A stretch of DNA of 42,531 nt from a virus: IMG/VR virus record IMGVR_UViG_3300009503_000008, positions 1-42,531 of that record; one strand, 5' to 3'. Positions 20,940 through 41,661 of this stretch are shown here, one piece after another (within the stretch, counting starts at the first letter, position 1; each line of letters opens with the position of its first letter). The notes beneath the pieces were generated by a model. It was not told the origin of the DNA. It searched no databases and saw only the letters and a list, made by a program, of their open reading frames with translations. Made by a program: the position numbers and the translations under genes.

Positions 20940-22166
20940 GTGGACGAGCTCAGAGAAGTCGCATATTGGGTCTGTGGGACGTGCGGCGAGAAGTTCCCAA
21001 ATGAGGGAAACCCCAACGTCGCTTGGGGCCGTGCCAGTCAGCACCATCGAATCGAAGGACACGAGATCGAGGGCAGTTTCGACGAGGACGGAAACATCAT
21101 CAACTCTGGTCTCGGTCGGCGCGGCATAGCCGGATTCGAGCGGCGTTCCAGCAAACCGGGTGCCAAGACAGCGAAGAAATCTGACGAAGGCTTGCTGGTA
21201 GCCAGAGGACGCGGTTTCGTGCTGGAATTGGACGGTCCGGGCCTGATAGCCTTCCATGCACGCCACAAGTCGGACGGCGTGGACGATTTCCCGCCAAAAG
21301 CGAACTACGGACATATCGCCGACATGATCATGCATGACTTGGCCTGGTGTGACGCTGCCTGGAGCATGCCATGGCCCAAGTTTCGCGCATGGATCGACGC
21401 TGACCCAGGACCGGACAAAGACAATCCGACATATCCGAGATGGCCTCAGTTAGCGCATGTCGCGCTAATACCGCAAATTGAACCGAACAACACCAAAGGA
21501 GGAAATAGCACTGATGAAACCGATGATTCCGAGCGTGGGCGGACAGGTGGAACCAAATTTACTGAACGACATGGACGTAAAATCCGCTACAAAGGAGCTG
21601 TTCAACGCGGCGAAGGACAGAATGCAGGCGGAAACGACGGCGACCGTTCTGGAGAAGGTTCTGGCCGGTGGTTCTGGGAAGACGAAAGACTCTTTGGACT
21701 TGAGCGGTATCGGCAGTCTTCTCGGGGGCGTAAGCGAGGCGATGCAGGGGACAAACAACTTTCTTCTGACACTGATGAACACCCTATTGTCAAAGAAGGA
21801 GAATGGGAACACGGACAACACACTGACGTTGCTGGTACTTATGATGTTGATGCAACAGCAGCAACAGCCGCAACAAGGGACGCAGTTTTTGGCACAGCTG
21901 ATGGCTCAGCAGCAGCAGACGTTCGCGCAGATTCTGGAGCAGGTGAATCTCAGGTTTACGGACATGGTGAACCTGATGAACAAGCACCACGAGGAGAAGG
22001 TGAAGGACTTGGAAAAGCGCATGGGGCCGGACCCGGTGACGGACCAGATATACAGTCAGGTGTTGCCGACGATAGTGAATCAAGCGATAGGACAGGCGAA
22101 AAAAGACCCGATAGACCAGTTAGCCGAGCTAAAAGAAAAACTCGACAGGATAGGGGGAACGTTTAA
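20940..22166 (+). CDS. Hypothetical protein with an N-terminal CxxC motif, first late-block gene; the C-terminal ~217 codons overlap the next gene out of frame
   Basis: GTG start after AGAGGTG. The first ~185 aa are protein-like (MDELREVAYWVCGTCGEKF...). The remainder is G/D/R/E-rich with low third-position GC, so the true C-terminus is uncertain. Confidence 0.45.
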   Translation: MDELREVAYWVCGTCGEKFPNEGNPNVAWGRASQHHRIEGHEIEGSFDEDGNIINSGLGRRGIAGFERRSSKPGAKTAKKSDEGLLVARGRGFVLELDGPGLIAFHARHKSDGVDDFPPKANYGHIADMIMHDLAWCDAAWSMPWPKFRAWIDADPGPDKDNPTYPRWPQLAHVALIPQIEPNNTKGGNSTDETDDSERGRTGGTKFTERHGRKIRYKGAVQRGEGQNAGGNDGDRSGEGSGRWFWEDERLFGLERYRQSSRGRKRGDAGDKQLSSDTDEHPIVKEGEWEHGQHTDVAGTYDVDATAATAATRDAVFGTADGSAAADVRADSGAGESQVYGHGEPDEQAPRGEGEGLGKAHGAGPGDGPDIQSGVADDSESSDRTGEKRPDRPVSRAKRKTRQDRGNV

Positions 22167-22476
22167 CCTGTTTGGTGGTAACTCGCTTGAGGAAAAGATC
22201 AAGCTCCGCACTCTTGATCTTGAAGAAGCGAAGCTTCGTTCGGAGGAGCGCAAACACGCCAGGGAATGGCAGGCGAAGCATGAAGCGCCAAAGCGGTGGG
22301 GGGAGGCACTCGGCAGCATATTCAGCGGGTTTACCGGCAACCAGAGCATGACGCCGGATTTCCTCTTCGGTGGCGGCCAGGGCGGGCAGCAGCAGGCCGG
22401 GCAAGCGCAGGGATCACCAGTGGAAGGCATGTCGCCATGGGGACCCGGTGAACCGGCAGGGGAGGGGCTGGCATAA
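21514..22476 (+). CDS. Gln-rich coiled-coil protein (320 aa)
   Basis: ATG at 21514 after AAAGGAGG. Translation is MKPMIPSVGGQVEPNLL...MMLMQQQQQPQQGTQFLAQLMAQQQQTFAQILEQ... By eye its third-position GC is higher than that of the overlapping frame. Confidence 0.65.
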   Translation: MKPMIPSVGGQVEPNLLNDMDVKSATKELFNAAKDRMQAETTATVLEKVLAGGSGKTKDSLDLSGIGSLLGGVSEAMQGTNNFLLTLMNTLLSKKENGNTDNTLTLLVLMMLMQQQQQPQQGTQFLAQLMAQQQQTFAQILEQVNLRFTDMVNLMNKHHEEKVKDLEKRMGPDPVTDQIYSQVLPTIVNQAIGQAKKDPIDQLAELKEKLDRIGGTFNLFGGNSLEEKIKLRTLDLEEAKLRSEERKHAREWQAKHEAPKRWGEALGSIFSGFTGNQSMTPDFLFGGGQGGQQQAGQAQGSPVEGMSPWGPGEPAGEGLA

Positions 22477-23207
22477 TGCCTGGCATGACGCCCAGTATGA
22501 TGCCTATAGCACAAGGACCAGTGCAAGGACCTGGCCTAAAACGCTGGGACAAGATAGCCGCAACGCTGGCCGCGCAGAACATAGCGGACTGGTTCAACGC
22601 GTTGTCCGCCGACGAGCTGGCCGACTACCTGGTCCGCAACGTTGATGTGGCGGCCATGCTGCCGATGGTATTAACACTGCCCACCATGGTCTTCAAGGTG
22701 GCACGCTATCCTCTCCTTATTTACCTGAAAAACGTTCTACGTGGTGGTCCGCACAAAGCGGTCTTGTACGAGGAGATCCGCCGCATGCTGGCCGACCCGA
22801 GAATGTTCGGACAGCGGTACTGGGATCACTGTCTGCTCCTGGCCTGGGGGCTGTACACCGACCCGGAGATGCGAAACCGTCAGTTGATGCGGTTCCCGTG
22901 CCTGGTCAACCTGAGTTCCGCGCAGCCCTGGTATCATGCGAACATGGACCGCGTGGTCAAGCGGTTGATCACCCAGTTGGAGGGAGGCGTGGAACAGCAT
23001 GACACCGGGAGAGCGGACCGGCCTGATAGTACTGGGAGCGGGTATAGGGCTGGTGGGCTTGGGGTTCCTCGGTTATTACCTTTACAAGCACGAGGGAGGG
23101 ACGACGCCTTATCCGTTGCCGTTTCCGACGAATTTTCAGGAAGCGCAGCAGACCTTGATCAACTTGGATGTGATGTGGTGGACTTCAGCGGCGCAGAGCC
23201 CGACTAA
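22476..23207 (+). CDS. Hypothetical protein; the last ~70 codons overlap the next gene out of frame
   Basis: Its ATG overlaps the previous stop (TAATG). It is protein-like to about ITQLEGGVEQHD and R/G/D-rich after that. Confidence 0.5.
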   Translation: MPGMTPSMMPIAQGPVQGPGLKRWDKIAATLAAQNIADWFNALSADELADYLVRNVDVAAMLPMVLTLPTMVFKVARYPLLIYLKNVLRGGPHKAVLYEEIRRMLADPRMFGQRYWDHCLLLAWGLYTDPEMRNRQLMRFPCLVNLSSAQPWYHANMDRVVKRLITQLEGGVEQHDTGRADRPDSTGSGYRAGGLGVPRLLPLQARGRDDALSVAVSDEFSGSAADLDQLGCDVVDFSGAEPD

Positions 23208-23376
23208 CACGGCTTATCGCCAGCAGCTCAACAACGAGGCGAACGAGATCCGGGCCAAGTTCCCCGGAGCAGGACCATCCAGCGGGTACACCTGCACCCA
23301 GTTGGTGGCGATGGGCAAGCTGAGCCAGAGCGTGTGCGACCAGGCCCAGGCGAACGGCATTAACCCTGCGCTGTAG
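22999..23376 (+). CDS. Membrane-anchored hypothetical protein (125 aa)
   Basis: MTPGERTGLIVLGAGIGLVGLGFLGYYLY has an N-terminal TM helix. Confidence 0.6.
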   Translation: MTPGERTGLIVLGAGIGLVGLGFLGYYLYKHEGGTTPYPLPFPTNFQEAQQTLINLDVMWWTSAAQSPTNTAYRQQLNNEANEIRAKFPGAGPSSGYTCTQLVAMGKLSQSVCDQAQANGINPAL

Positions 23377-23387
23377 GGGGGAACACG

Positions 23388-23765
23388 ATGGCGACAAAGG
23401 CACAAGCCAAAGCACAAGGTGCACGAGCGCAGACGGTATCGGTGCCCATAGCCCCGCCGGCCTACGCCGTCCGGCAGCAGACCGGTTTGTCCTTGCCGAC
23501 GAACCCGAAAGCACTTATGGAAGGTCTCGGCGGGGCGGCACTGGGTGCTGGTACCACGGCGCTGCTCATCACCATCCTGCCTCCTGATCGAAAATGGATC
23601 GGCGCGATTGTTGCCGGCTTGTTCGGCGGGATCGGCGTCCTGACCAGTCCGATAGGCACTTGGATGCAGGAGGCGTCCGGCGCGGCGTTCGCGTCGAGCG
23701 CGTTCTACTTTTTCCTGGACCTTACCGGTCAGGCACCGGGCCAAACGCCGACCGTCGGCGGGTAG
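23388..23765 (+). CDS. Integral membrane protein (125 aa)
   Basis: Several hydrophobic helices: GGAALGAGTTALLITILP, WIGAIVAGLFGGIGVL and AAFASSAFYFFL. Confidence 0.6.
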   Translation: MATKAQAKAQGARAQTVSVPIAPPAYAVRQQTGLSLPTNPKALMEGLGGAALGAGTTALLITILPPDRKWIGAIVAGLFGGIGVLTSPIGTWMQEASGAAFASSAFYFFLDLTGQAPGQTPTVGG

Positions 23766-23767
23766 GA

Positions 23768-23795
23768 TTGAGTTCCGGTTGCCGGATGCTACCAT
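23768..23795 (+). promoter_or_regulatory. Late-block promoter copy 1 (TTGAGT-16-TACCAT) with a conserved leader
   Basis: ttgagttccggttgccggatgctaccat...aaccgaaaaggaggt is near-identical in architecture to 40777-40830. Confidence 0.5.
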
Positions 23796-23827
23796 GGCTA
23801 AAACCGAAAAGGAGGTCAGTCAGCCTT

Positions 23828-24253
23828 ATGTATGGCAGCAATGAGGACAGCTTCGGCCCTACCTTGGTATCAGCGTTGATCGGCACCTTCGGCGGTTACC
23901 TTGACGGTTCGTGGGTCAAAAAGAAGCCCGGCTCGATGTGGCCGACCGTGACCCGTGCCATCGTGGGCATCGGCGGTCTCGGTACCCGCAACATGTTCCG
24001 GCGGCCGTATGTCAGCGCGACCCTGGAAGGACTCGGCTACGGCGGCCTGTACGGCACCGGCATGGCCATCGCCGCCAACACCACGACCATCGGCGGGGTA
24101 GCTCCGGGACCGTTGACGATGAATCGGACGAGTACTACCAGCACCGCCAGCTTCGTCCGTGGCAGGGGAGTGGGCGCGGCGGTGCTCCCGCCCCGCGTGA
24201 TCCAGCCGACTCCGTCTCCGCTTCGCCGGCCGGCGTTCGAGGTGGAGTACTGA
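23828..24253 (+). CDS. Gly-rich membrane-associated protein (141 aa)
   Basis: The internal ATG at 23828 follows AAAGGAGGT of the conserved leader. Translation is MYGSNEDSFGPTLVSALIGTFGGYL... Confidence 0.55.
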   Translation: MYGSNEDSFGPTLVSALIGTFGGYLDGSWVKKKPGSMWPTVTRAIVGIGGLGTRNMFRRPYVSATLEGLGYGGLYGTGMAIAANTTTIGGVAPGPLTMNRTSTTSTASFVRGRGVGAAVLPPRVIQPTPSPLRRPAFEVEY

Positions 24254-24303: not shown

Positions 24304-25509
24304 GTGGCCGACATCAGCAACTACATCAGCGAGATCACACTGCTCGACGTCACCGTGCCCGCCCTGGCGGCCGGGGTGCCCATCACCAGTCCGACCAGTG
24401 GATCAATCACGGTCAACGGCAGCACTATCGAAATCACACCAACTGCAACCATGCAATCCACCGCGCTGTCAAACACCCAGCGGGCCGACTGCCTGCACGT
24501 GTACTGCCTGTCGCCCGTAACGTCGCCGGGCGTCTACCCGGACTTCAGGTTCTGGTTCGTGGTGGACAAGCAGTCGATGCAGAAGTATCTGCAACTCGAC
24601 GGCAGCTACCTGTCCAACATGGCTCCGTGGCCGTGGCACACTAAGGGCGGGCCGGTGGACCGCGACGGCAAGTACGTCGGCGGCTTCCGACTGGGCAAGT
24701 CCACCAGGGCGGTCCTGGGCGCCGCGCTGACCGGCAAGCCCACCAAGAACCAGCCGCTGGAGATCACGGGGTACAAGGTGCAGACGCAACTGCAGGTGAC
24801 CGTGGTGTCCAACGCGGGCTTCACGAACCCCGAAGTGCCGGCGCGAATCATCGTCACCGGCGAGCTCCTGACCGAGGAAATGGTCGCGCAGATAGCGGCC
24901 GGCTGGAACCCGGTCGTCTTCAAGCAGACCATAGAGCGCGTCGTCGACAACAAGCAGCCGCTCTCGTTCACCCACCAGGGGCAGGTGAGCTTCCAGTCGT
25001 GGAACACCCTCCCCGGCGGCACCAAGCAGAGCGGACCCGTCGTCAACCGCCTTGGTCGGTTCGCCTTTAACGCGGCGGCCACCGGGACGCAGAAGCCGTT
25101 CGTGCTCACCCAGAACAATCAGTTGAACGGCAACCAGGCCAACGTGGTCGACCAGTACAGCGACCTGGGGTTCGACACGTTCACCAACGAGGGCGAGGCT
25201 TTCGACCTGAAGGGGTTCGGCTGCCGGGCGGGAACCAACCAAGCCTACCTCGGGTGGTCCATCGGCGGTAATCTGGTCCCGAACAACACGGGGTTCGACT
25301 GCACGCCCGACGTCAACCGGTTCAACTGGGGCGACCAGGCCCCGCAGGGGGCCAGCAACGGGCAGATGCTGCCCGTGCCGCGGTACCCCGGCGAACTGCT
25401 GGTCTACGGCGAGCAGGCCGTGCCGTTCATCCAGGCCGCGGGGACGGCCATCGCCGCGAACGCAAGCGAGGTCGCCATTGACGGCGTGTACTGCGAAAAG
25501 GCTGTGTGA
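24304..25509 (+). CDS. Beta-rich virion protein candidate (401 aa), possible major capsid protein
   Basis: GTG start after AAAGGAGA. The ORF is long and has high third-position GC. No family is recognised. The function is proposed only from size, position and the strong hairpin downstream of the next small gene. Confidence 0.35.
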   Translation: MADISNYISEITLLDVTVPALAAGVPITSPTSGSITVNGSTIEITPTATMQSTALSNTQRADCLHVYCLSPVTSPGVYPDFRFWFVVDKQSMQKYLQLDGSYLSNMAPWPWHTKGGPVDRDGKYVGGFRLGKSTRAVLGAALTGKPTKNQPLEITGYKVQTQLQVTVVSNAGFTNPEVPARIIVTGELLTEEMVAQIAAGWNPVVFKQTIERVVDNKQPLSFTHQGQVSFQSWNTLPGGTKQSGPVVNRLGRFAFNAAATGTQKPFVLTQNNQLNGNQANVVDQYSDLGFDTFTNEGEAFDLKGFGCRAGTNQAYLGWSIGGNLVPNNTGFDCTPDVNRFNWGDQAPQGASNGQMLPVPRYPGELLVYGEQAVPFIQAAGTAIAANASEVAIDGVYCEKAV

Positions 25510-25524: not shown

Positions 25525-25812
25525 ATGATCGGATACAGGACGTGTTTCATCAACACCCAGGCGACCGCCACGCAGAACCTGCCCGAGCCGGCCGCTGAAG
25601 TCCTGACGGTGATCGGGCTGGCCGGGGGCGCAACATCCATCGCTGCCACCACCTACACCGTGACCAGCAGCGCGCCGTCCACCGGCCAAGTGCAGTTCAC
25701 CGGCACTCCTGAATCGCCCAGCAACACGCTGACGTTCAGCGCCGCGCTCACCGCTAACGGGGTGCTCATGGTCATGTATCGGCCGGTCGGCACGATAGAG
25801 CCGTCGGCATAA
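25525..25812 (+). CDS. Hypothetical protein (95 aa)
   Basis: Complete ORF, tightly packed after the 401-aa gene. Confidence 0.55.
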   Translation: MIGYRTCFINTQATATQNLPEPAAEVLTVIGLAGGATSIAATTYTVTSSAPSTGQVQFTGTPESPSNTLTFSAALTANGVLMVMYRPVGTIEPSA

Positions 25813-25895: not shown

Positions 25896-26849
25896 ATGGC
25901 GAACATCACGGTATTCAACCAGACGCAGGCGCAGACGGCCAAGTATTGGTACGAACGCCTGATCTACACCTACGGCCCCGAAACCATCGCGTCCGGGGTC
26001 AACCCCGTGTTCAACATCCAGAGAATAAACAAAACCACAACGCCAAGCTGGATGGCGGTGCTGTCGCGCCTGGCCGTGAGTCAGTCCGCCCAGGTGGCGC
26101 TCGACTTCTCCTTCGACGGCCAGTCGATCCATGCGTCCGCATTTCAGGGATTCACCGACGCTGCCATCGCTGGCGTGCGGACTGACCGGCTGTTCATTCC
26201 GGCCGTCAGGAACATCGCCATGCAGGCGGTGAATTCCGGAGCGCCGGTTGCGAACTTCCAACTCACCTTCCAAGCCGAGATGCGCAAGCTGTCCATAGCC
26301 GAAAAGATTCTGCGCGGAATACAACTCACTCCCGACGAACATGCTATCGCGGCCGACGTCGGGGTGGCTCCCCTGGTGGCCAAGGGAACGGCCCCGATAC
26401 CATGGGAGGCGCAGATGGATCGCACCTACCGGAACAGGATCATTTATGAGGACGTGCGGTTGCTCCACGTCGACTCGTCGAGTACCGACCAGTCGTTCCT
26501 GACGATCCAAACGCAGAGTTCGGACGAGTTCTTGGTGTTACGCGAACTGGCCATCGAGGGCGGGGCGGCCGTGACCGTATCGGTTGACCGTGACGACGAC
26601 AGTAACTACATGGGTGTGAATGGAGCGGCCTTCGTTCAGGCCGACGACGCCCCTTGGGACGTATTCGTGCCGGCGATGCAGTACCTCACATTCCACGCCC
26701 AGAGTGCGACCAACCTGACCGGCGTGCCGATCAGGGCCAGGGTATGGCACTGCACGCTCTCCAACATCTTACGGGTGCGTTTCGGCCTGGCCGGGAAGGG
26801 CGACGTGCCGGACAGCGTGTACGAAAAGGCACTGGCGGGGGTGGCGTGA
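25896..26849 (+). CDS. Beta-rich virion protein candidate (317 aa)
   Basis: Complete ORF after GGGTAAGGTG. No family is recognised. Confidence 0.55.
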   Translation: MANITVFNQTQAQTAKYWYERLIYTYGPETIASGVNPVFNIQRINKTTTPSWMAVLSRLAVSQSAQVALDFSFDGQSIHASAFQGFTDAAIAGVRTDRLFIPAVRNIAMQAVNSGAPVANFQLTFQAEMRKLSIAEKILRGIQLTPDEHAIAADVGVAPLVAKGTAPIPWEAQMDRTYRNRIIYEDVRLLHVDSSSTDQSFLTIQTQSSDEFLVLRELAIEGGAAVTVSVDRDDDSNYMGVNGAAFVQADDAPWDVFVPAMQYLTFHAQSATNLTGVPIRARVWHCTLSNILRVRFGLAGKGDVPDSVYEKALAGVA

Positions 26850-27583
26850 TGGCCCTGACCCAGCAGCAGATAAAAGCCTTCACGTCCCTGAAGGCCAAAC
26901 TGTTCGGCACCGGTGGCGAACTCCTCACAGGGGAGCAGGACATACTGCTGACCCTCGTGACTATATCGGATCAGTTATCCGCTCTGACAACGGCGCTGAC
27001 CGGCATCGTGCCGGAGAACGTTACCGTCAACGTCACGGGCGGTACCAACACCATCGAGGAACCGGTCGTGCCTACGGTGCCGTCTGTTGTGATTTCCTGG
27101 GACCCGCATCGACTGGATGAAATTATTCTGCTCACAGAAGACCTGCAGGGCAGCGTGTCGGACACGGTAACACAGTTTCCGCTCACCATCCCGGCAGCCA
27201 GCGGGGGAGTGAACGGGTCGGTCACGGTGTCGATCCCTCCGCCGCCGCAGAGCGCGGCCAAGCTGTTCGGTCCGTTGGTGATCACCACGGACAGCGTCGG
27301 TGCACAGATGTCCATCGCGGCGACTGTGGACGGGCACAATGTGATCGGGGAGCAGGGATTTGTGTTGGGGCCGTCCACTGAGATCGCGTTCCATCAGTTC
27401 ACCGTGGCCACCCAGACGGGTATGGCGTTCACCATATCCAACCCGAGCACCGCCCCCGTGACGATATATTTTAAGGCCGAATTGATGATAATGACCATGG
27501 CTTTCTACAATTCCATTTACCATCCGATAATAGAGAGTGCGTTTAAATATGTGCGAAAATTCTTCGGGGTCTCAGCCAGTTGA
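26849..27583 (+). CDS. Hypothetical protein (244 aa)
   Basis: Its ATG overlaps the previous stop (TGATG). Translation is MALTQQQIKAFTSLKAKLFG... The upstream part of track ORF 26654.. is off-frame over the previous gene. Confidence 0.6.
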   Translation: MALTQQQIKAFTSLKAKLFGTGGELLTGEQDILLTLVTISDQLSALTTALTGIVPENVTVNVTGGTNTIEEPVVPTVPSVVISWDPHRLDEIILLTEDLQGSVSDTVTQFPLTIPAASGGVNGSVTVSIPPPPQSAAKLFGPLVITTDSVGAQMSIAATVDGHNVIGEQGFVLGPSTEIAFHQFTVATQTGMAFTISNPSTAPVTIYFKAELMIMTMAFYNSIYHPIIESAFKYVRKFFGVSAS

Positions 27584-27589
27584 GGAGGA

Positions 27590-27820
27590 ATGGTCGTGAC
27601 TACGTATGTCTGTACCACCCACAACGTGCAGGTTGTGGTTAATGGCAATCAGCGGACCATAAAGATGCCTCCGCCTTTTGGACCGGGAGCGCCGCCTATT
27701 TACCCCGCCGCGCAGTGCGCTCTGCTTACCGCCATGGATGTTCAGGCCGGCGTGATGCGGCGCGTGGGGCCGAACGGTAGCCCGCTGGCCGGCGAGTGCG
27801 AAGTGGTGGAGGTGGGCTAG
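27590..27820 (+). CDS. Hypothetical protein (76 aa)
   Basis: Follows a GAGGAGGA SD. The start is ATG 27590 or GTG 27596. Confidence 0.5.
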   Translation: MVVTTYVCTTHNVQVVVNGNQRTIKMPPPFGPGAPPIYPAAQCALLTAMDVQAGVMRRVGPNGSPLAGECEVVEVG

Positions 27821-28510
27821 ATGCCGGGTACTATTGAGCAAGGTGACCTAATAGCGGCGCTGGGACGGGGGAGGGCAACCTTCGTCGGGCATATCGGGAG
27901 TGGCGCGACCACGACCACAATCCCGCTGGCCGACCTCAATCTTGGGACGGCCAACCTCGCCGGTGACTTCGTGCTTCTTGACGGCGGCGCTTTGGGATCG
28001 GGCAGCGTGCCGCAGGTGGCGGTGATCTCCTCAAACACGGCGACATCCCTGACGGTACCTGCGTTGTCGGCGGCTCCGGGGGCGGGGTACGCAGTGTGGA
28101 TATTCACCACGGCCACGATCAATGCGAACGTGGCGGAGAACATAGCCCAGGTTGGCGGGCAGAACGTGCCGACCTACGCCGGGACTCCAACCGTACCGAC
28201 GGCCGGGACCGTGCTCACGGCGGTGCCAGAAGGTTCGGCGGCAAGCATCGCCGCCAACGGAAACATAGTCTCGTTCACCCCTACGGCGAACGGCTTGGTG
28301 CGAGCGCGGTTCACGCTGTCGGTGGCCTCGGTCGTCAACCTCGCCGTCAACGGCACGTCGCAGGGCGGCATTGAAAATGGCTCGACCATCCCGGCCGGGT
28401 CGCCGCAAACAATTACCTTCCCGGTGCAGTCCGGGCAGACATACGCATTGCAGGTGGCTACAGCGCAGACATCTACGGTATACTTCATGGCTCAGGTGGT
28501 GATCGGGTAA
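27821..28510 (+). CDS. Hypothetical virion-associated protein (229 aa)
   Basis: Complete ORF, coupled by start/stop overlap to both neighbours. Confidence 0.55.
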   Translation: MPGTIEQGDLIAALGRGRATFVGHIGSGATTTTIPLADLNLGTANLAGDFVLLDGGALGSGSVPQVAVISSNTATSLTVPALSAAPGAGYAVWIFTTATINANVAENIAQVGGQNVPTYAGTPTVPTAGTVLTAVPEGSAASIAANGNIVSFTPTANGLVRARFTLSVASVVNLAVNGTSQGGIENGSTIPAGSPQTITFPVQSGQTYALQVATAQTSTVYFMAQVVIG

Positions 28511-33581: not shown

Positions 33582-34658
33582 ATGACTTGCTCGAATCCAG
33601 TAACGGTTACTAAGCAAGTACCGGCATACACGCCGCCACAGCAACAATGCACCGGCGGGCGCGTATTGGTCAACGGGCAGTGCGTTTGTCCGTCCGGCAC
33701 CCAGTGGAACGGCAGTCAGTGTGTAACGGTCACTCCGCCCGTCCAGAAACCGGGATCGCCCTCCGCCCCGCAAGAGATAGCGGAATCGGCCAGCGGAACC
33801 GGCTACAATGCCCAGATAACGATTTTATGGACTCCTGGTAGCGGCGCTACAAGTCAGGACATCATTGATCCGATAAGCGGACAGGTGTTCGCCAGCGGTC
33901 TGTCGCCCTCGACCAACGAGTACACCATAACCGGGCTGTACGCCGGGGCCACGGTGCACATTGCCGTCCGCGCCAATAACTCGGCTGGCAGCACGGTTGG
34001 CCCGTACACGCCCTTTGTTATGCCGTGTCCGTCGGGGTATACCGCTACTGGTACGGAATGTCAGCAAAACATACAGGTTCCCGGCGCACCGTCCGCTTTC
34101 GACTGTTCCAGTTACGAATCATCCAATCTATCGACCGAGGTTGATCTATGCTGGAATATCGACTCTAACGTGGATTACTACCTCGTGCGGGACAACTGGG
34201 GATTCGGTGGCGGCCTGAACGGTCCGGGCGCAAATGTCGGGTATACCGGCATTGCTCATCTGACAGGACTACCGCCAGGATCAATGGTGCAGGCCCAAGT
34301 TGCCGGTGTTAACAGTGCCGGGCAAGGACCATGGAGTCCCATTGTGACCATGTATACGCAGGCGGCAAGCTCCGCGCCAAGTCAGAGCATATCTGCCTGG
34401 GATTGCAGTTCCGGGCAACCCTCGGGCTGCATCGGCTGCTGTTTCTCTGGTGTTCCATCAAACGCCGCCGAGGTCACGATCCAACACGTGGACAGTTCCG
34501 GTAACATCCTCGGGGTGCTGGCCGATTATGTACAGGGGAACAGCGTACAGGTTTGCGGCCTGATATCCGGGGGCATTGAGCATTGGCAGGTGCGTGCGTA
34601 CGATGACAGCGGCAACCTGGTGGCTTGGAGCAATATCGTGCAGTCAGTGGCACAGTAG
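33582..34658 (+). CDS. Cys-motif / tandem FN3-like protein (358 aa), paralog of 34671..35492
   Basis: MTCSNPVTVTKQVPAYTPPQQQCTGGRVLVNGQC. The FN3-like segment is ...ITILWTPGSGATS...YTITGLYAGATVHIAVRANNSAGS. The start at 33582 follows AGGAG; the alternative is 33576. Confidence 0.6.
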   Translation: MTCSNPVTVTKQVPAYTPPQQQCTGGRVLVNGQCVCPSGTQWNGSQCVTVTPPVQKPGSPSAPQEIAESASGTGYNAQITILWTPGSGATSQDIIDPISGQVFASGLSPSTNEYTITGLYAGATVHIAVRANNSAGSTVGPYTPFVMPCPSGYTATGTECQQNIQVPGAPSAFDCSSYESSNLSTEVDLCWNIDSNVDYYLVRDNWGFGGGLNGPGANVGYTGIAHLTGLPPGSMVQAQVAGVNSAGQGPWSPIVTMYTQAASSAPSQSISAWDCSSGQPSGCIGCCFSGVPSNAAEVTIQHVDSSGNILGVLADYVQGNSVQVCGLISGGIEHWQVRAYDDSGNLVAWSNIVQSVAQ

Positions 34659-35725: not shown

Positions 35726-36604
35726 GTGGCCCGTTTGCTGACCGTCCCGTCCGGCTGGGGTACCGCCTACGCGCCGACCATCGGCGAATTACAGACCCTG
35801 GCCGCCGCCTTGTCCGGCACCAATGCAGCCATCAACCAAGCGGCTGAGACCTTTTCGGTGGAATATCCCTCCATGCAGGCCGTGCTGTCATTTATCCAAG
35901 GTGGCGGAGTGTATGTAGATTACTGCGGCTGGCCGATGTACTACCCGGTAATCGTATCCACCTATCCGGCACAGGGCGAGGCGGGGCTGTTCGGCAGTTT
36001 CCTTTCGGCCATGGGAGCCGACCAATACTACTGCGATGGCTTTGACACCTCCCAAGCTGGCTGCATGCCAAGCTACCCATATGATCGCGGATGGCTGAGT
36101 AAATACGACATCAGCAATCCATACGGTCTTATAGTGGGCAAAGATGGGGCAATGGCTGCATGCACATCATTGATATTCAACCGCAACGACAACGCCTACC
36201 CTATGGTGGCGGTTCGGTCTACCGGTGGATCGGGAATTTACTTTTACGGTGCCGCCGGGTCAAACGGTGCGGTTGATCCGAATCAATTTGCGCAGTTTAT
36301 CTTATCGGTCATGTCATCGTCCCAGGGCGGTACCGGCACTGGTGGTGGCACGGTGCAGACCCTGCAGCAACAATGCCAGTCCGAGGGCAACGTCTGGTAT
36401 GACAACCAGTGCCTGACACCGGCGGAATACCAATGTATCCTTAACGGCGGGGTGTGGGTGAATGGTGTCTGCCAGTTACCCACGGCCGGGGTCGTACCGC
36501 CAGCACAGACGACCGGTCCTAATTGGCCCCTTGTCATCGGCGGTGGTCTGGTCGGAGTCGGTCTGATCGTCGGCTTGGTAGCCCTGGCCGCTGGAGGTGA
36601 ATGA
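35726..36604 (+). CDS. Hypothetical protein with a Cys-motif and C-terminal TM anchor (292 aa)
   Basis: GTG start. QQQCQSEGNVWYDNQC...CILNGGVWVNGVC repeats the Cys-motif. The C-terminus is WPLVIGGGLVGVGLIVGLVALAAGG. Confidence 0.6.
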   Translation: MARLLTVPSGWGTAYAPTIGELQTLAAALSGTNAAINQAAETFSVEYPSMQAVLSFIQGGGVYVDYCGWPMYYPVIVSTYPAQGEAGLFGSFLSAMGADQYYCDGFDTSQAGCMPSYPYDRGWLSKYDISNPYGLIVGKDGAMAACTSLIFNRNDNAYPMVAVRSTGGSGIYFYGAAGSNGAVDPNQFAQFILSVMSSSQGGTGTGGGTVQTLQQQCQSEGNVWYDNQCLTPAEYQCILNGGVWVNGVCQLPTAGVVPPAQTTGPNWPLVIGGGLVGVGLIVGLVALAAGGE

Positions 36605-37265
36605 CGTGTCCCTGACGATTCTGGCTCAAGGTGATTCCAATGGTGGCGGTGATGGTCCGCTGGTCAATACCAACTGGGCGCAACTGGCCGAGCTCGCGCT
36701 GAACGTCAGCATCGGCCAGGTGTCGGCGTCCGAACTGGAGCAGTTCATCAACCCCGCCGCGTACCAGGCCGAGGCCGGCCAGCCGGAAGGAGCGCAGATC
36801 GAGCTCGACATCTCCGGCTGGACCATCTTCGGCACCGATTATTCCCAAACGGTTGCCGACCAGATCAACAATTACTGGCAGCAGGGGCAGTTCACCGTCA
36901 ACGGCGAGAGCATGCAGGCGTGGCCCGGTGCCAGCCAGATAGCATACGGCGGGAACGACACCTTGACCGTGCAGTACCTGAAGGGTCAGATCTGGATTCT
37001 CTGGATAGCCCTCGCCATAGCGGTCGCCGTGTGGCTGTATGGGCTGTTGCAGAGCTTCACCGGGCAGTCGTGGTCCGTGGGTGTCAATTCGGCGTCCGTG
37101 GCTAAGGGTGGTATCTCCGGCTGGTGGGCGAACCTGCCGCTGTGGGAGAAGATAGGGTTCTTCTTCTTCGCCGGCGTCGCGGTTGTCGGTCTGGTGATCG
37201 TCGGGTCCGAAATCGAGATCGCCAAGGCCGGTGCGCCTAAGTCGGAGATCCACATCGGGGGGTGA
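36597..37265 (+). CDS. Integral membrane protein (222 aa)
   Basis: The helices are IWILWIALAIAVAVWLYGLL and IGFFFFAGVAVVGLVIVG. The start is GTG 36597 or 36606. Confidence 0.55.
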   Translation: MNDVSLTILAQGDSNGGGDGPLVNTNWAQLAELALNVSIGQVSASELEQFINPAAYQAEAGQPEGAQIELDISGWTIFGTDYSQTVADQINNYWQQGQFTVNGESMQAWPGASQIAYGGNDTLTVQYLKGQIWILWIALAIAVAVWLYGLLQSFTGQSWSVGVNSASVAKGGISGWWANLPLWEKIGFFFFAGVAVVGLVIVGSEIEIAKAGAPKSEIHIGG

Positions 37266-38497
37266 ACCATGTGGCGAACGACATATACTATCAAGCTGCT
37301 GATTACATTCTGTCATCGCTGGGAATAACCCCGACACCACAAAACGTCAACATGCTGGTGGCCTGGATGCCGAACGAATATACGCCGGACGAACTGGCAG
37401 TGACCAACAATCCTCTGGCAACCAGTCTCAAGACAGCCGGTGCTGACGGCTATTGCTATATCCCTGGTGTTGGTCAGTCATCGGAACCGTGTTACGACAC
37501 CTTGGCCGACGGATCGGCGGCATGTGCCCAAACTATTGCCAACGGGTTGTATCCGCACATCCTGGCCGGATTACAGAACAGCGACCCGAACACGTTCTTC
37601 TCGTCCGCCGCCGAGGCTGAATTTTCCCAGTGGTCCGGTGGCAGTCCGGGATACATGCAGAGAATACAACAAAACTATGAATCATTACCACCACCGCCAT
37701 CGTGGGCGCTTTCCGTGTCCTCTCCTCCCCCGCCGGCTTTTGCGCCCCCGCCGGTGTCGCAGGGATTTTTGTGGCTCGGTGGGATACTCTTTGCCGGCGG
37801 GCTTGCGCTGCTCGGCTGGGAGTGGTGGCAGAATAGGCGGACACCATCATATGGTTTCGCCCGGTTGATCGAGGAACACGACACCGATACCAGGATCAAC
37901 CCTGACTACCTGACCTACATCGCGCCGACGCAGGAGGATGTATCCGAGGTAACCGAACCGCTGAATGCCTGCACGGTGTACGACCGGGTTAAAAAGGCGC
38001 TCCAGGAACGCGGGGTGGCCGTGGTCGAGAACCGCTCCATGCCGCCAAATACCGAGGCGTTCTACACGGACGAAGACGGTGACCGGATACTGCTCAGCCC
38101 GTCCGTCAGCTTGCTGGCGAAGGAATGCAACCCGTACGCGACGCAGACGCTGCTGCACGAAGGTACGCATGCCCTACTGCACAACCCGGACTGCATGCCG
38201 TCGTTCAGGGGACAGATGTACACGAGCGTTGCCCATCAGGTCGAGGAGCAGGAAGCGGAGCTCGCGTCCCTGGCGACGATGGTCCGACTCGGCCTGCCGG
38301 TCGAGACATACGACGGAACCGTCATACCGCCTGGCCGGGCTGAAGTCGCATGGGAACGGGCGAAACGTGATCTTGACCCGGTTACCTATGAGAACGTCCG
38401 GTGGGCATCCGATTGGCTGACGAGAGCCGCTCGCGGCGAGGACGGCTCCCTTGTCAGCGAGAAATGCCCGCCGGCACGATTGATCGAAAGGAGGTGA
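37262..38497 (+). CDS. Membrane-spanning protein with a C-terminal HExxH metallopeptidase-like motif (411 aa)
   Basis: A Pro-rich linker, the TM helix FLWLGGILFAGGLALLGWEWW, then TLLHEGTHALLH (HExxH). The family is not resolved. Confidence 0.45.
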   Translation: MNHVANDIYYQAADYILSSLGITPTPQNVNMLVAWMPNEYTPDELAVTNNPLATSLKTAGADGYCYIPGVGQSSEPCYDTLADGSAACAQTIANGLYPHILAGLQNSDPNTFFSSAAEAEFSQWSGGSPGYMQRIQQNYESLPPPPSWALSVSSPPPPAFAPPPVSQGFLWLGGILFAGGLALLGWEWWQNRRTPSYGFARLIEEHDTDTRINPDYLTYIAPTQEDVSEVTEPLNACTVYDRVKKALQERGVAVVENRSMPPNTEAFYTDEDGDRILLSPSVSLLAKECNPYATQTLLHEGTHALLHNPDCMPSFRGQMYTSVAHQVEEQEAELASLATMVRLGLPVETYDGTVIPPGRAEVAWERAKRDLDPVTYENVRWASDWLTRAARGEDGSLVSEKCPPARLIERR

Positions 38498-38499
38498 TC

Positions 38500-38964
38500 A
38501 TGGTGCTGCTCAATCTGTCAGCGATCCACGTCCCGTCGATGATGGTCACCACGTTCCTAACCCTGGTCGGACTGATCTGTCTCGATACCGTTCTGGGGAT
38601 GGTGCTGGCGATAGTCAAGGGAACGTGGAAGTGGAACCAGGTGGGCCATTTCCTGGAGACATCTGTTTTGCCGTACGTCACGGGCTTGTTGGGATTGGCT
38701 TTTTTGGCCCTGCTCCAATCGTCGATGTTGCCGGTGTTCTACTCGTCGGCCACCGCTGCGGCACTGAAGTTCGTGGCGGATATCGTCAGCAAGATCAACA
38801 ACTTCGGTATCCAGGTGCCAGAGCCGAAGACAACGACCACAACGACCACGACTATCGGTCCTGAACCAACGACCACGACTACCGGCACGACCGCCAACAG
38901 TAATCTGGCGAACAGCGGTAATCTGACAACGGTGTCCACTACACCTGATACGTTCACCAAGTAG
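38500..38964 (+). CDS. Multi-pass membrane protein with a poly-Thr tail, holin candidate (154 aa)
   Basis: ATG 38500 follows GAAAGGAGGTG. There are three hydrophobic helices (TTFLTLVGLICLDTVLGMVLAIV, VLPYVTGLLGLAFLALL and PVFYSSATAAAL) and a TTTTTTT tail. Confidence 0.4.
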   Translation: MVLLNLSAIHVPSMMVTTFLTLVGLICLDTVLGMVLAIVKGTWKWNQVGHFLETSVLPYVTGLLGLAFLALLQSSMLPVFYSSATAAALKFVADIVSKINNFGIQVPEPKTTTTTTTTIGPEPTTTTTGTTANSNLANSGNLTTVSTTPDTFTK

Positions 38965-38978
38965 CGGGGGATAACGAC

Positions 38979-39950
38979 ATGGGCGGTTACTCCACTGTCC
39001 ACAACTCCATAGTGCAGGGCCTGTACTCCATGTTCCCGGACAGGCCAAAATGGCTCGGCGGCGTGACGGTGGTGACCGCCCTGGCCGCGACCGCCCTGGA
39101 TGTCGCCGCCGAGAAGTACGCCGCGAAGACGCCGCCGGAAAACGACCTGCACGACCGGCTGATCGCCCTGTACAAGGATCACGCAGCCAAGCTGTCCGGC
39201 GGCTCAAACGTGACGGTCAACGTGATCAATCAGGCATCGTCTTCCTCGTCCGTCCGGTCACGGTATATGATGGAGGAGGGAAACACCGACATCAACACGG
39301 ATTGCTTTTCCTGCGCCTCGGCCCATCTGGCCGCCACGAAAGCGGCGCTGGAGCGGGCCAGGGACGCCGCAAAGGACGGGACATGCGGCGCCGACTGCCG
39401 GAAATGGCTCAACCTGGCCGCCGACGAGTCGGCCGCCCTCCTGTCCTGGGACTGGACGGATGAGCGTATCAGTAAGCTGCCGGAACATCAGCGGCGGGTG
39501 ATCGAACCACGAAAACGACAGGTGGAAGAGTTATTCCGGGAAATCCTCGGCAATGATCATCAGGCGGTCGAGGTGAACAAAGCCAAAAGCCTTCTAGGCG
39601 AGTCGATTCGATTTGTCAATTCCGGGGACGGTGTTGATCATCCCGAAGTTGCCGAACGGCTCAAGCGATCCGAGGAGATGCTGGCGGCGGCGGAACGGCT
39701 CGACATCACGGCTTTTGATACGGACACGGCCAACAAGCTCCGCAGGGTGCGCCAGGCGGTGGGGAACAAAATCGAATTCCCCGATGCTGTCAAGGAGGTG
39801 TACCGCCAAGCCCGTGAGGTTGCCCAGGCCGTGAATGACCGGGTGTTATCCTCCATTGACACTACAAGGCTGGACGATCTGACCAAACAGGCTAATGAGG
39901 CATGGTCTGGATTCAAGCAAGACCGGATAAGGCACGGTGATCTGCAATGA
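38979..39950 (+). CDS. Hypothetical helical protein (323 aa)
   Basis: Complete ORF with an N-terminal hydrophobic segment, WLGGVTVVTALAATALDVAA. Confidence 0.55.
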   Translation: MGGYSTVHNSIVQGLYSMFPDRPKWLGGVTVVTALAATALDVAAEKYAAKTPPENDLHDRLIALYKDHAAKLSGGSNVTVNVINQASSSSSVRSRYMMEEGNTDINTDCFSCASAHLAATKAALERARDAAKDGTCGADCRKWLNLAADESAALLSWDWTDERISKLPEHQRRVIEPRKRQVEELFREILGNDHQAVEVNKAKSLLGESIRFVNSGDGVDHPEVAERLKRSEEMLAAAERLDITAFDTDTANKLRRVRQAVGNKIEFPDAVKEVYRQAREVAQAVNDRVLSSIDTTRLDDLTKQANEAWSGFKQDRIRHGDLQ

Positions 39951-40315
39951 CACCCGGTCTGGTGATAAACCCCCAGGGATGCACGGTGACGCCGGTCGGC
40001 CAAGACGCCGTGACTGTTCAATGCGGATTCTCTCTGTCCAACACCGGCACTGATATATTGGTGGTGGCCGTAGCCGCCGTGACGCCCGCCGGTGGTGTTT
40101 TGTCCATACAGCCGCTGGAGATATTGCCGGGATCTGCTCCGGTGTCCTTCCTCTCCCCGCCGTCCGGTGCCACCTGGTTAATAGCGGCGCAGACGAAAGG
40201 CCATATGGAATGGACAGCCGACTGGCATTTGGTGCTGGCAATCGTGGTCGGACTTTTGGCTGGTCTGGGCCTGGTCGGCCTGATCGGTGCGATATCATTC
40301 TGGTCGAGGTGGTAG
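39947..40315 (+). CDS. C-terminally anchored membrane protein (122 aa)
   Basis: Start/stop overlap with the upstream gene. The C-terminus is WHLVLAIVVGLLAGLGLVGLIGAISFW. Confidence 0.55.
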   Translation: MTPGLVINPQGCTVTPVGQDAVTVQCGFSLSNTGTDILVVAVAAVTPAGGVLSIQPLEILPGSAPVSFLSPPSGATWLIAAQTKGHMEWTADWHLVLAIVVGLLAGLGLVGLIGAISFWSRW

Positions 40316-40319
40316 ACAT

Positions 40320-40562
40320 TTGTGGAATTATATCCGCAAGCCCGTTCCTCCCTGCCCTTTGTGCGGCAGGATAATGAACCGGATCAGCCAGCGGAGGTAC
40401 CGTTGCAACTCATGCTACCTCGAAGCAACACACCGCCGTGGAACCAGGGATCACGTGCTGATATGGGCCGTGACGGACGGTGCCGACGACTGGGTGCACA
40501 ATAGCGGAGTCGGCCTGTCGGTGGGCAAACGGCGGATATTCCTGCGGGAGGTGGTGGTGTGA
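40320..40562 (+). CDS. Zn-ribbon protein (80 aa)
   Basis: TTG 40320 follows GAGGTGG. CPLCGRIMNRISQRRYRCNSC is present. Confidence 0.4.
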   Translation: MWNYIRKPVPPCPLCGRIMNRISQRRYRCNSCYLEATHRRGTRDHVLIWAVTDGADDWVHNSGVGLSVGKRRIFLREVVV

Positions 40563-40774
40563 AATCGGGTGAAGAATGCCCTATCTGCCTTGACGTGCTG
40601 AATATCGGTTGTGAGAAGTTCGACGCGAAATACTGCACGCTCAAGGAGAAATACCTGACTGACCCCAACATGAGCGCCGACGACGTGGTGATGGAGATGA
40701 CCCTGTTCGCCACGCCGGAAGAGCGGCAGGCCCTGGCGGACGCCCTGGTGGAGCGGGGTCTGGCCAGCAGATAG
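40559..40774 (+). CDS. Small hypothetical protein (71 aa)
   Basis: GTG start after GGGAGGTGG. Translation is MKSGEECPICLDVLNIGCEKF... Confidence 0.45.
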   Translation: MKSGEECPICLDVLNIGCEKFDAKYCTLKEKYLTDPNMSADDVVMEMTLFATPEERQALADALVERGLASR

Positions 40775-40776
40775 CG

Positions 40777-40804
40777 TTGAGTTCCGGTTTCTGTGCTGTA
40801 TCAT
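40777..40804 (+). promoter_or_regulatory. Late-block promoter copy 2 (TTGAGT-16-TATCAT) with a conserved leader
   Basis: ttgagttccggtttctgtgctgtatcat...aaccgaaaaggaggt parallels 23768-23815. Confidence 0.5.
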
Positions 40805-40833
40805 CGGTACAAACCGAAAAGGAGGTATTTGTC

Positions 40834-41085
40834 GTGCCTACTCTCGATACCGCGATGAACAAGTGGGCCCGCAACACTGCCAACGCCGGCGAGAAGTGGA
40901 AGGCCGCCGTGTCGCACGGTGACTACTGCGGCGGAATGACCCAGTTTCTCGGCGTGCGGCCGAACCGCATGTGCGCCGACTGGCAGCAGGGTGTCGGTGC
41001 CGTCTCGGCCAGCGACTTCCAGGCCAGCATCGCCGGCAAGGCCAACAAGTGGGCCGAGGGACTGCGCCGGGCGGCTTCTCTCTAA
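40834..41085 (+). CDS. Hypothetical protein (83 aa)
   Basis: GTG 40834 follows AAAGGAGGT of the conserved leader. Translation is VPTLDTAMNKWARNTANAGEKWKAAV... Confidence 0.5.
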   Translation: MPTLDTAMNKWARNTANAGEKWKAAVSHGDYCGGMTQFLGVRPNRMCADWQQGVGAVSASDFQASIAGKANKWAEGLRRAASL

Positions 41086-41109
41086 GTTTTCCTCCTCACC
41101 CATGGGATG

Positions 41110-41131
41110 GGCCGGCCACAATCGGCCGGCC
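41110..41131 (+). terminator. Terminator-like hairpin
   Basis: GGCCGGCC-acaatc-GGCCGGCC, followed by ttattcc. Confidence 0.45.
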
Positions 41132-41172
41132 TTATTCCATCGACAAAAAATGGTCAACAGGAGGTGTGATCG

Positions 41173-41661
41173 GTGCCTACGCTCCAATCCGGTGCCGCGC
41201 TGGTGAGCTTCCAGGTAATCAACCCCGCCACGGGGATTGTTGCTGGCGGTACGGCCAGGGTCGATTCCGGGGCCGACATAACGCTGGTTGATTCCGCGAC
41301 CATTGCCCAGATCGGTGTCCTGCCGGACGGCTATGTGGAAATCCAGGGCGTGGACGGCAACCCCGTGCAGGCATCGACTTACATGGTGTCCATCAACCTG
41401 GGCAATCTCGGGTTCGTTGGCCAGGCCAGGGTCGTCGGCATGGACGGTCTCCAAAGCAGGGACGGGTATCAAATGCTCATCGGCACGGACCTGCTTGGCA
41501 CCGGGGTGTTCGATTACTTTGGGCCGACGGATTCTTTTAACTTGCAGCTCGGTGTCACCACAGGTCCACCCATAAGCCCCGTGCCGTCCTGGGTGTTGCC
41601 CGTCGGTATCGTCTCCGTCGGATTAGGGCTGGTCGGCCTCATCTGGGGAGTGCATGGGTGA
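41173..41661 (+). CDS. Retropepsin-like aspartic protease with a C-terminal TM anchor (162 aa)
   Basis: GTG start after AGGAGGTG. ARVDSGADITLVDSATIAQIGVLP contains the DSGA motif. It is followed by MLIGTDLLG and the C-terminal helix VLPVGIVSVGLGLVGLIWG. Confidence 0.65.
   Translation: MPTLQSGAALVSFQVINPATGIVAGGTARVDSGADITLVDSATIAQIGVLPDGYVEIQGVDGNPVQASTYMVSINLGNLGFVGQARVVGMDGLQSRDGYQMLIGTDLLGTGVFDYFGPTDSFNLQLGVTTGPPISPVPSWVLPVGIVSVGLGLVGLIWGVHG

Follow-up and report, generated by a model that had tools for sequence, protein, structure and literature searches.

The late block at positions 20940 to 41661 of the IMG/VR virus record IMGVR_UViG_3300009503_000008 may well be the morphogenesis, host-recognition, and lysis or entry operon of an undescribed lineage of temperate, non-tailed double-stranded DNA (dsDNA) bacterial viruses, probably membrane-containing and without a virus-encoded packaging ATPase; we rate this reading as slightly better than even. 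The analysis covered the whole 42,531 nucleotides (nt) of the record, hereafter called the window. The late block consists of about 30 open reading frames (ORFs) in a single rightward operon that is 96% coding under genetic code 11. A temperate non-tailed virus is the most economical explanation because a phage-type early module is combined with a single late operon ending in wall-directed enzymes, and because two jelly-roll-class core proteins are soluble, lack signal peptides, are the most conserved and length-constrained proteins, and keep a fixed order across phyla. It is further favored because many small membrane proteins surround the core genes, as in the structural modules of PRD1-, Bam35-, and PM2-type viruses, and because a variable spike slot follows the core cassette and the largest free contigs of the lineage measure 36 to 42.5 kb.

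The element is a closed circle without recognizable tailed-phage hallmark genes

The window begins and ends with an exact direct repeat of 123 nt (positions 1 to 123 and 42409 to 42531). The ENA contig k141_1006778 (42,549 nt) encodes an identical copy of the core protein of 401 amino acids (aa), and 123 plus 18 trimmed bases gives 141, the k-mer length of the assembler. The terminal repeat is the remnant of a k = 141 assembly overlap, and the whole element is a complete circle of 42,408 bp with a GC content of 57.8%; an 88-codon ORF crosses the junction. The sequenced molecule is the free circular (or terminally redundant) form. No host flanks were present at either end of the window, and a scan of the window found zero tRNA genes. 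A preliminary description, which had spoken of a prophage, was not borne out in this respect. Because the genome is complete and circular, the missing gene classes are a property of the entire element.

Pfam and PHROGs searches of all 30 late ORFs revealed no terminase, portal, HK97 capsid, prohead protease, tail tube, tape measure, or baseplate, and NCBIfam searches of the unassigned late proteins likewise returned no hallmark structural or packaging family. Among the other 121 ORFs of at least 80 aa in the six frames of the whole window, only the serine and tyrosine recombinases and one helix-turn-helix (HTH) protein were matched. The matches obtained in the late block with the three collections were a GT2 glycosyltransferase, a PG_binding_1-retropepsin fusion, an Rv2525c-like glycoside hydrolase, an fn3 protein, a weak zincin, and a second retropepsin. 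The sole PHROG tail match, "minor tail protein," fell into an FN3 region (E = 2e-5). An NCBIfam match to a gene transfer agent (GTA) head-formation protein was rejected, since E = 0.0046 among 37 proteins is not significant, and an alternative genetic code masking large genes was rejected in view of the coding density under code 11. Thus, the earlier statement that the block has no recognizable tailed-phage hallmark gene stood up to sensitive profile searches and two structure predictions, as did the size of its largest ORF, 612 aa.

Searching the six frames for the Walker A pattern [AG]xxxxGK[ST] yielded five strings: three in short or spurious ORFs, one (GHKATGKT) in the intein of a methylase gene, and one (GGFRLGKS) in the 401-aa core protein. 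The methylase intein (4375 to 6423, minus strand) harbors the only canonical GxxxxGKT string within any long ORF of the window. GGFRLGKS was rejected as an ATPase motif because its lysine is replaced by E or R in homologues and the segment is missing in distant ones; a near-motif, AGGSGKT, in a 320-aa late protein was rejected because it is not conserved in homologues. The earlier claim that no listed ORF contains a Walker A motif therefore does not hold to the letter, as such strings exist in two late ORFs and in the intein, but the late pair is unconserved. The element encodes no P-loop NTPase of any kind (helicase, ParA, or packaging enzyme), and the window contains no conjugation or partition ATPases. 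Pfam analysis of 93 ORFs from four relatives, among them a Gp3-like recombination directionality factor, DnaB_2, and sigma-70 region 4, revealed no hallmark gene and no ATPase. Furthermore, in five relatives no credible Walker A ORF was found within 10 kb on either side of the core genes; the single candidate, a 713-aa Walker-positive ORF of locus L015, was rejected as a packaging ATPase because it is an FN3 protein. Since the element encodes no NTPase of its own, a viral motor cannot pump its DNA.

The preliminary description had left room for a conventional tailed phage with structural genes too divergent to be recognized. Such a phage would explain the early half, which is of the tailed temperate type, and could be seen behind the "minor tail protein" and GTA matches. 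This explanation is nevertheless very unlikely indeed, since the genome is complete and lacks a P-loop ATPase, no ORF is free for a large terminase or a portal, there is no tape measure with a largest ORF of this size, and both conserved large proteins are modeled as beta-sandwiches and not as an HK97 or portal fold.

The early half is of the temperate-phage type

The early and lysogeny genes at 508 to 14275 encode HTH_17, RusA, DnaD/DnaB_2-like, and HTH_23 proteins, a C5 cytosine DNA methylase with an intein, DUF5131 of the Gp37/Gp68 type, a 3D-domain protein, RecT, a PD-(D/E)XK nuclease, Cro-like and CI-like HTH proteins from divergently oriented genes, and a large serine recombinase. The methylase gene (4375 to 6423, minus strand) is split by the intein, which comprises Hint and a LAGLIDADG homing endonuclease. 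Outside the element, DUF5131 has its nearest homologue (65% identity) on the contig of a conventional tailed temperate phage, which also encodes a 1,437-aa tape-measure-like protein, a holin, and an amidase and has the same layout of serine recombinase and CI/Cro genes. Domain content and the DUF5131 relative thus confirm that the element has a classic temperate-phage chassis. A temperate lifestyle is indicated by the repressor switch, the serine and tyrosine recombinases, the free circle represented by the window, and an integrated relative on a 471-kb contig.

Models of the two core proteins point to jelly-roll-class folds

The two most conserved late proteins, which the preliminary description had suggested to be jelly-roll capsid proteins, are encoded at 24304 to 25509 (core protein 1, 401 aa) and 25896 to 26849 (core protein 2, 317 aa), both on the plus strand. 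The AlphaFold2 model of the 317-aa protein, based on a 39-sequence alignment, had a pLDDT of 88.9 and a pTM of 0.87. It comprises two eight-stranded beta-barrels (residues 19 to 131 and 182 to 287) joined by a helical segment (residues 134 to 177). Foldseek comparison to the PDB gave 67 matches at E ≤ 1e-3. They included the DUF2961/GH172 structures 4kq7 (E = 1.9e-5), 8ah3, 7v1v, and 8ic8, as well as peptidylglycine hydroxylating monooxygenase (PHM) and bicupins, and, among viral proteins, PRD1 P3 (E = 1.7e-4), PR772, the STIV vertex protein A223, and birnavirus VP2. Among predicted viral structures, the STIV coat protein (E = 6e-6) and a tectivirus capsid protein were matched. The GC1 capsid protein was also among the Foldseek matches of the 317-aa model. 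The matches to DUF2961/GH172, PHM, PRD1 P3, and the STIV coat protein had E values of 1e-4 to 6e-6 and probabilities of 0.85 to 0.99, with TM-scores of at most 0.26. DUF2961/GH172, PNGase F, PHM, and viral capsid proteins were assigned to a double-jelly-roll fold class by Krupovic and colleagues (PMC8812541). Because all TM-scores are this low, there is no global superposition of the two barrels on a double-jelly-roll capsid protein; either no solved double-jelly-roll protein has its barrels arranged in this way, or the alignments reach only locally.

The model of the 401-aa protein, based on a 12-sequence alignment, had a pLDDT of 64; it was good for residues 10 to 250 and poor after residue 255, and its N-terminal domain was jelly-roll-like. 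Foldseek returned no match below E = 1e-3 for this protein. The top entries were GH172 proteins and PNGases, followed by the single-jelly-roll capsid proteins of bromoviruses, sobemoviruses, and picornaviruses, with a target-normalized TM-score of approximately 0.48 at an E value of approximately 0.07. HK97-fold proteins were absent from the Foldseek lists of both core proteins, and hhalign detected no relation between the 401-aa and 317-aa families. From the models we conclude that both proteins are jelly-roll-class beta-sandwiches with neither an HK97 nor a portal fold. The 317-aa protein is the best candidate for a major capsid protein. Hence, the jelly-roll part of the earlier suggestion was supported for both proteins, but the double-jelly-roll assignment depends on local matches with TM-scores not exceeding the value given above.

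The low TM-scores to capsid proteins would also suit a role outside a shell. In a capsid-less enveloped or pleomorphic virus, similar to plasmaviruses or pleolipoviruses, a host-derived membrane would carry the transmembrane, FN3, and Cys-rich proteins, and the jelly-roll proteins would serve as spikes or matrix. The Plasmaviridae and Pleolipoviridae are enveloped and capsid-less; like the element, they have many membrane proteins but no packaging ATPase, and they live as temperate or persistent viruses. Such a virion would be in line with the lack of a packaging ATPase, since known viruses of this type also manage without packaging motors. It would fit the transmembrane helices predicted by hydropathy scan in at least 13 late proteins (the preliminary description had counted at least 11) and the membrane anchors of several surface-type proteins. 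However, the known members have genomes of 7 to 17 kb, much smaller than that of the element. Moreover, the element carries genes for wall hydrolysis, its host seems to have a cell wall, and the two most conserved, size-constrained proteins are soluble, signal-less, and of the jelly-roll class, which is more typical of capsid proteins. We therefore regard an enveloped, capsid-less virion as unlikely.

The core genes form a conserved cassette

In the window, the cassette begins with a basic, Gly-rich protein of 141 aa (23828 to 24253), continues with the 401-aa protein, a conserved 95-aa protein (25525 to 25812), and the 317-aa protein, and ends with three proteins of 244, 74, and 229 aa (26849 to 28510), all encoded on the plus strand. 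Only 14 relatives of the 401-aa protein were found among 5.8 billion clustered proteins, and none of them was named or had a Pfam domain. The 317-aa protein had 41 relatives in a word-indexed search, and a full profile search of 1.84 billion representatives revealed 381 clusters at 50% identity, 189 of them with E < 1e-30; nearly all of the 150 members listed have a length of 299 to 366 aa.

The closest relative, which has the same gene order, is represented by two contigs (41,400 and 41,325 nt) of other samples. Its 401-aa and 317-aa homologues are 84% and 78% identical to the proteins of the window, and most of its other proteins are 28 to 62% identical. More distant relatives were found on contigs of 41,746, 38,276, and 36,046 nt, so that the biggest non-integrated contigs of the lineage span the range from 36 kb to the length of the window. 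A scan of one genome per species, queried with a distant subalignment of the 317-aa family, identified 12 loci, mostly in metagenome-assembled genomes (MAGs) labeled Bacillota and Dehalococcoidia/Dehalococcoidales; the same scan with the 401-aa family gave no loci. The family does integrate, since one locus lies inside a 471-kb Dehalococcoidia contig, where the end of the element adjoins the host genes for GluRS and RluD.

In an all-against-all comparison, each of the 12 loci had the 317-aa family, and the 401-aa family was present wherever a locus reaches far enough. The order is fixed: a protein of approximately 140 aa, which always precedes the 401-aa family gene, then the 401-aa family, a protein of approximately 95 to 130 aa, the 317-aa family, and proteins of approximately 175 to 240 aa and 56 to 80 aa. 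The slot after the cassette is variable. It is occupied by the 612-aa protein in the window, by a Beta_helix protein in locus L001, a pectate-lyase fold in L023, GH43 plus XepA in L022, BNR in L019, Laminin_G_3 in L005, and Kelch in L006. By analogy, this slot of carbohydrate-active or repeat proteins resembles the receptor-binding modules of phages.

Two side observations concern the relatives. In those of the Dehalococcoidia type, genes for an undecaprenyl-diphosphate-synthase-like prenyltransferase, a DHBP synthase, and a transglutaminase-like peptidase are located just upstream of the 401-aa family gene (L005, 3559 to 5168; L011, 3679 to 5009; L014, 6470 to 7852). Members of the family also occur on short contigs binned as an Aenigmatarchaeota (DPANN archaeal) MAG (L015 and L018) and as a Pirellulales (Planctomycetota) MAG (L012), which reflects either misbinning or a wider host range.

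Megablast of the late block against 50,697 phage records gave no match, and tblastn with the 401-aa and 317-aa proteins gave none in these records or in 72,556 plasmids. IMG/VR scans with three different alignments revealed no member of the family, and no published description of such elements was found in the literature. We tentatively propose, at somewhat less than even confidence, that the 317/401-aa cassette marks a lineage of bacterial viruses that is new at a high rank, that of an order or above, and that may lie outside the realms recognized so far. It would be widespread in anaerobic Bacillota and Chloroflexota, have a jelly-roll, membrane-associated virion and a 36- to 42-kb dsDNA genome without a virus-encoded packaging NTPase, have exchanged its entire early module with tailed phages, and go unseen by current virus-detection pipelines.

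The absence of the family from the scanned virus collections could also mean that the element is not a virus. An integrative or episomal element with phage-derived control genes might use its 21-kb operon to remodel or decorate the host envelope by adhesins, wall enzymes, and a glycosyltransferase, with no particle being formed. The missing packaging machinery, the many envelope-type domains (PG_binding, GH, GT2, fn3, and transmembrane proteins), and the prenyltransferase and DHBP synthase genes inside the module of the Dehalococcoidia-type relatives are compatible with this. On the other hand, neither the core proteins nor the large beta-helix or glycosidase-type proteins have secretion signals, and the early module, with RecT plus exonuclease, RusA, and CI/Cro, is of the phage type. 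Furthermore, conjugation and partition ATPases are lacking, the family is absent from the 72,556 plasmids, the core cassette is kept across phyla together with a variable receptor-binding-like slot, and the sizes of the largest non-integrated contigs cluster. A non-viral element is therefore improbable in our view, to the same degree as the enveloped virus discussed above.

The same conservation bears on the idea that the element is a satellite that has neither capsid nor packaging genes and depends on a co-resident helper phage for being packaged. The element does combine integrases and a repressor with the absence of terminase, portal, and HK97 capsid genes, and its early genes are shared with tailed phages. 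However, known satellites are far smaller than 42 kb, no homologue of a small terminase or a capsid-remodeling protein is encoded, the element brings along lysis-type genes and a conserved late region of 21 kb, and the same cassette is kept in two phyla. We give a satellite only a slim chance.

Proposed virion and comparison with known viruses

For the temperate non-tailed virus that we favor, the following course can be envisaged. Derepression of the CI/Cro-type switch would lead to transcription of the single rightward operon. The 317-aa and 401-aa jelly-roll proteins, which lack signal peptides, would assemble a cytoplasmic shell, aided by the adjoining small conserved proteins and a Gln-rich scaffold-like protein, and small transmembrane proteins would form an internal membrane or an envelope. 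The variable carbohydrate-active or beta-helix protein would act as a receptor-binding spike, and the peptidoglycan-binding and glycoside-hydrolase proteins would open the wall. Because no P-loop NTPase is encoded, the 42-kb DNA would be enclosed by co-assembly, condensation, or a host factor and not by a virus-encoded terminase or an FtsK/HerA-type motor.

The element is most like a membrane-containing jelly-roll phage, yet it falls outside every described family. With the Tectiliviricetes (PRD1, Bam35, and PM2) it shares, as far as can be told from genes alone, a structural module rich in small transmembrane proteins next to a capsid-candidate gene for approximately 300 to 400 aa. A non-tailed virion as we read it, a spike-like protein encoded downstream, and the two eight-stranded barrels of the 317-aa model are further similarities, and some Tectiliviricetes are temperate with circular genomes. 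In contrast to double-jelly-roll viruses, neither the window nor the surroundings of the relatives' core genes contain an ATPase of the FtsK/HerA superfamily (A32-like). Sequence similarity to the Tectiliviricetes is absent and TM-scores do not exceed 0.26. Two different large proteins of the jelly-roll class apparently take the place of the single capsid protein and the small penton protein, the genome of the element is 2 to 4 times as large as that of most members, and its early module is of the tailed-phage type. A circular genome of similar size, 44 kb, is found in the Salisaeta phage SSIP-1, a membrane-containing double-jelly-roll phage.

Jelly-roll viruses without a packaging ATPase have been described, namely, the Odin group and FLiP (PMC5894146) and Sulfolobus polyhedral virus 1 (SPV1) of the Portogloboviridae (PMC8812541). 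Jelly-roll-class capsid candidates, the lack of a detectable packaging ATPase, and small conserved proteins beside the capsid gene are common to these viruses and the element. However, its genome is dsDNA of 42.4 kb, while those of the Odin group have 7 to 11 kb and that of FLiP is single-stranded DNA of 9 kb, and the likeness to them is so far one of description. The SPV1 genome has approximately 20 kb. Hosts and early genes differ from those of all three.

The Helvetiavirae (the Thermus phages P23-77 and IN93; Simuloviridae) are single-jelly-roll viruses with two capsid proteins and have an internal membrane (PMC12642351). Two adjacent conserved structural genes of the jelly-roll type, circular dsDNA, and temperate members are common features. 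Their proteins, however, are paralogous vertical single jelly rolls of approximately 170 to 290 aa, encoded beside an ATPase gene in genomes of 16 to 19 kb, whereas those of the element have 401 and 317 aa, are mutually unrelated by hhalign, include one with two barrels, and have no ATPase gene nearby. Finally, the early half corresponds to that of temperate Caudoviricetes of Bacillota (CI/Cro, serine recombinase, RecT plus exonuclease, RusA, DnaD-like protein, DUF5131, and methylase), but the HK97 capsid, terminase, portal, protease, and tail genes of the Caudoviricetes are missing.

Several points weigh against a non-tailed, membrane-containing virus. To our knowledge, every dsDNA jelly-roll virus without an ATPase has a genome of 7 to 20 kb, and a motor-less virus of 42 kb would be unprecedented. 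The virion is a prediction from the genes. Despite the confident 317-aa model, all its Foldseek TM-scores are low, and scores as good or better are reached by mycobacteriophage minor tail proteins, CUB tandems, and Cry protoxin domains; the 401-aa model is poor in the C-terminal 40%. Searches of PDB sequences with five family profiles and one single sequence revealed no sequence-level link to a solved structure, and none to a known virus was found. Absence from the IMG/VR scans could mean that the family was overlooked or that it is not viral, and much of the region from 33 to 41.6 kb could consist of accessory cell-surface genes and not of virion genes. Of the virion type put forward in the preliminary description, the non-tailed character and the temperate chassis thus agree with the lack of hallmark genes, the jelly-roll models, and the early half, while the particle, its membrane, and the identity of the shell protein stay conjectural.

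As far as we know, all dsDNA phages of such genome size fill a preformed shell by a terminase-portal motor or an FtsK/HerA-type ATPase. If the proposed reading is true, a 42-kb temperate virus with neither motor implies a different route of encapsidation and extends the ATPase-less jelly-roll viruses from 7 to 20 kb to genomes as large as those of tailed phages. A further consequence would be that a complete early and lysogeny module of a tailed phage can be paired with an unrelated virion module. The family, with sequence clusters that number in the hundreds and come from subsurface and sediment Bacillota and Dehalococcoidia, is missing from IMG/VR, PHROGs, and Pfam and would then be a blind spot of marker-based virus discovery. 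Both core proteins, of 317 and 401 aa, can be used as markers and as targets for expression and cryo-electron microscopy.

Further genes of the late operon

All late genes described in the following are on the plus strand unless stated otherwise. The first one (20940 to 21470) encodes a protein with a zinc-ribbon-like N-terminal domain (CxxC...HH), of which only residues 2 to 176 are conserved; within the ORF from 20940 to 22166, conservation with the closest relative is limited to the first 176 codons. The frame stays open for approximately 230 more codons, up to 22166, which are rich in Gly, Arg, Asp, and Ser codons and extend over the next gene (21514 to 22476). The same extended frame is present in the relative L001 (6741 to 7907), in which the product of the next gene is only 28% identical. 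It could represent an overprinted gene or a frameshift product, or be a mere effect of the T-poor composition. The next gene itself (21514 to 22476) encodes a poorly conserved, Gln-rich helical protein of 320 aa, a candidate scaffold or assembly protein. Four small proteins follow (22476 to 24253), three of them with transmembrane helices (22476 to 23207, 22999 to 23376, and 23388 to 23765); the fourth is the 141-aa protein that opens the cassette.

Within the cassette, conservation of the 244-aa family includes a beta-rich domain of approximately 150 aa at the C terminus. The profile of this family had no match among PDB sequences; the 244-aa protein is a candidate vertex or minor capsid protein. 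The spike-like 612-aa protein (28510 to 30348), which lacks a signal peptide as the core proteins do, shares its N-terminal 255 residues (63% identity) with the 684-aa Beta_helix protein of the relative. The beta-helix spike announced in the preliminary description is therefore backed by the Pfam beta-helix match of the 684-aa relative, but the 612-aa protein itself has no such match. The GT2 glycosyltransferase gene (30334 to 31269, minus strand) is the sole opposite-strand gene in the late block. It lies in an island of 47% GC, its product is 47% identical to that of the closest relative, and it is probably a lysogenic-conversion gene.

The two wall-directed proteins, candidates for a role in lysis or entry, are a fusion of PG_binding_1 and a retropepsin-like protease that has a DTGA motif (31349 to 32011) and the Rv2525c-like glycoside hydrolase (32087 to 32848). 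Four proteins encoded between 33049 and 36604 contain Cys-rich modules of the type QQQC..GG.W.NGQC. Three of them are FN3-like, the fn3 domain match being at 33582 to 34658; one has an N-terminal transmembrane helix and one a C-terminal transmembrane anchor. Two of the four open with the near-identical peptides M(T/G)CSNPVT.T.QVP, and the four consecutive proteins look like a recently duplicated family of surface proteins.

The end of the operon (36597 to 41661) is rich in membrane proteins. It encodes a protein with two transmembrane helices, a transmembrane protein with a weak zincin match and an HExxH motif (37262 to 38497), one with three transmembrane helices, an N-terminally anchored helical protein, another with two transmembrane helices, and three small proteins of the Cys or Zn-ribbon kind, as well as a retropepsin-like protein (41173 to 41661) that has a DSGA motif and ends in a transmembrane helix. 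Several of these genes are conserved in the relatives L006 and L009. With these genes, the FN3/Cys-motif surface-type proteins, the wall-binding or wall-hydrolyzing proteins, and the two aspartic proteases noticed earlier in the block were all recovered. The fusion of retropepsin-like domains to a peptidoglycan-binding domain in one case and to a C-terminal transmembrane helix in the other is an architecture unusual among phage genes. Among the three small Cys-containing proteins (40287 to 41085), one is a basic zinc ribbon (pI 10.8; CxxC...CxxC) and another has a CPIC...C...C pattern. DNA binding by these small proteins is conceivable and would bear on a motor-less condensation.

Further features of the early half

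Named homologues belong to Bacillota, including a Thermoanaerobacter MAG (56% identity), which is weak evidence on the host. The host is probably a member of the Bacillota. A 286-aa tyrosine recombinase (18843 to 19703, minus strand) and a 368-aa coiled-coil protein (19696 to 20802, minus strand) are encoded divergently to the late operon, an arrangement kept in the relatives L001, L022, and L023. The element thus has two site-specific recombinases, the Xer-sized tyrosine recombinase and the 518-aa large serine recombinase (12719 to 14275, plus strand), one of which may integrate the element while the other resolves multimers.

The two recombinase genes flank a leftward gene cluster of unknown function (14684 to 17798), which includes a gene for a protein with the CRISPR-associated domain Cas_VVA1548 (Csx16-like; 15579 to 16373, minus strand). 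The element carries no CRISPR array, and the protein may be defense or counterdefense cargo. Just 3' of the tyrosine recombinase gene lies approximately 1 kb of noncoding DNA with low GC content, in which the region from 18440 to 18770 contains polypurine/polypyrimidine tracts and a 27-nt inverted repeat is located at 18689 to 18715 and 18738 to 18764 (96% complementary). The stretch from 18440 to 18770 is a candidate attP, dif-like site, or origin.

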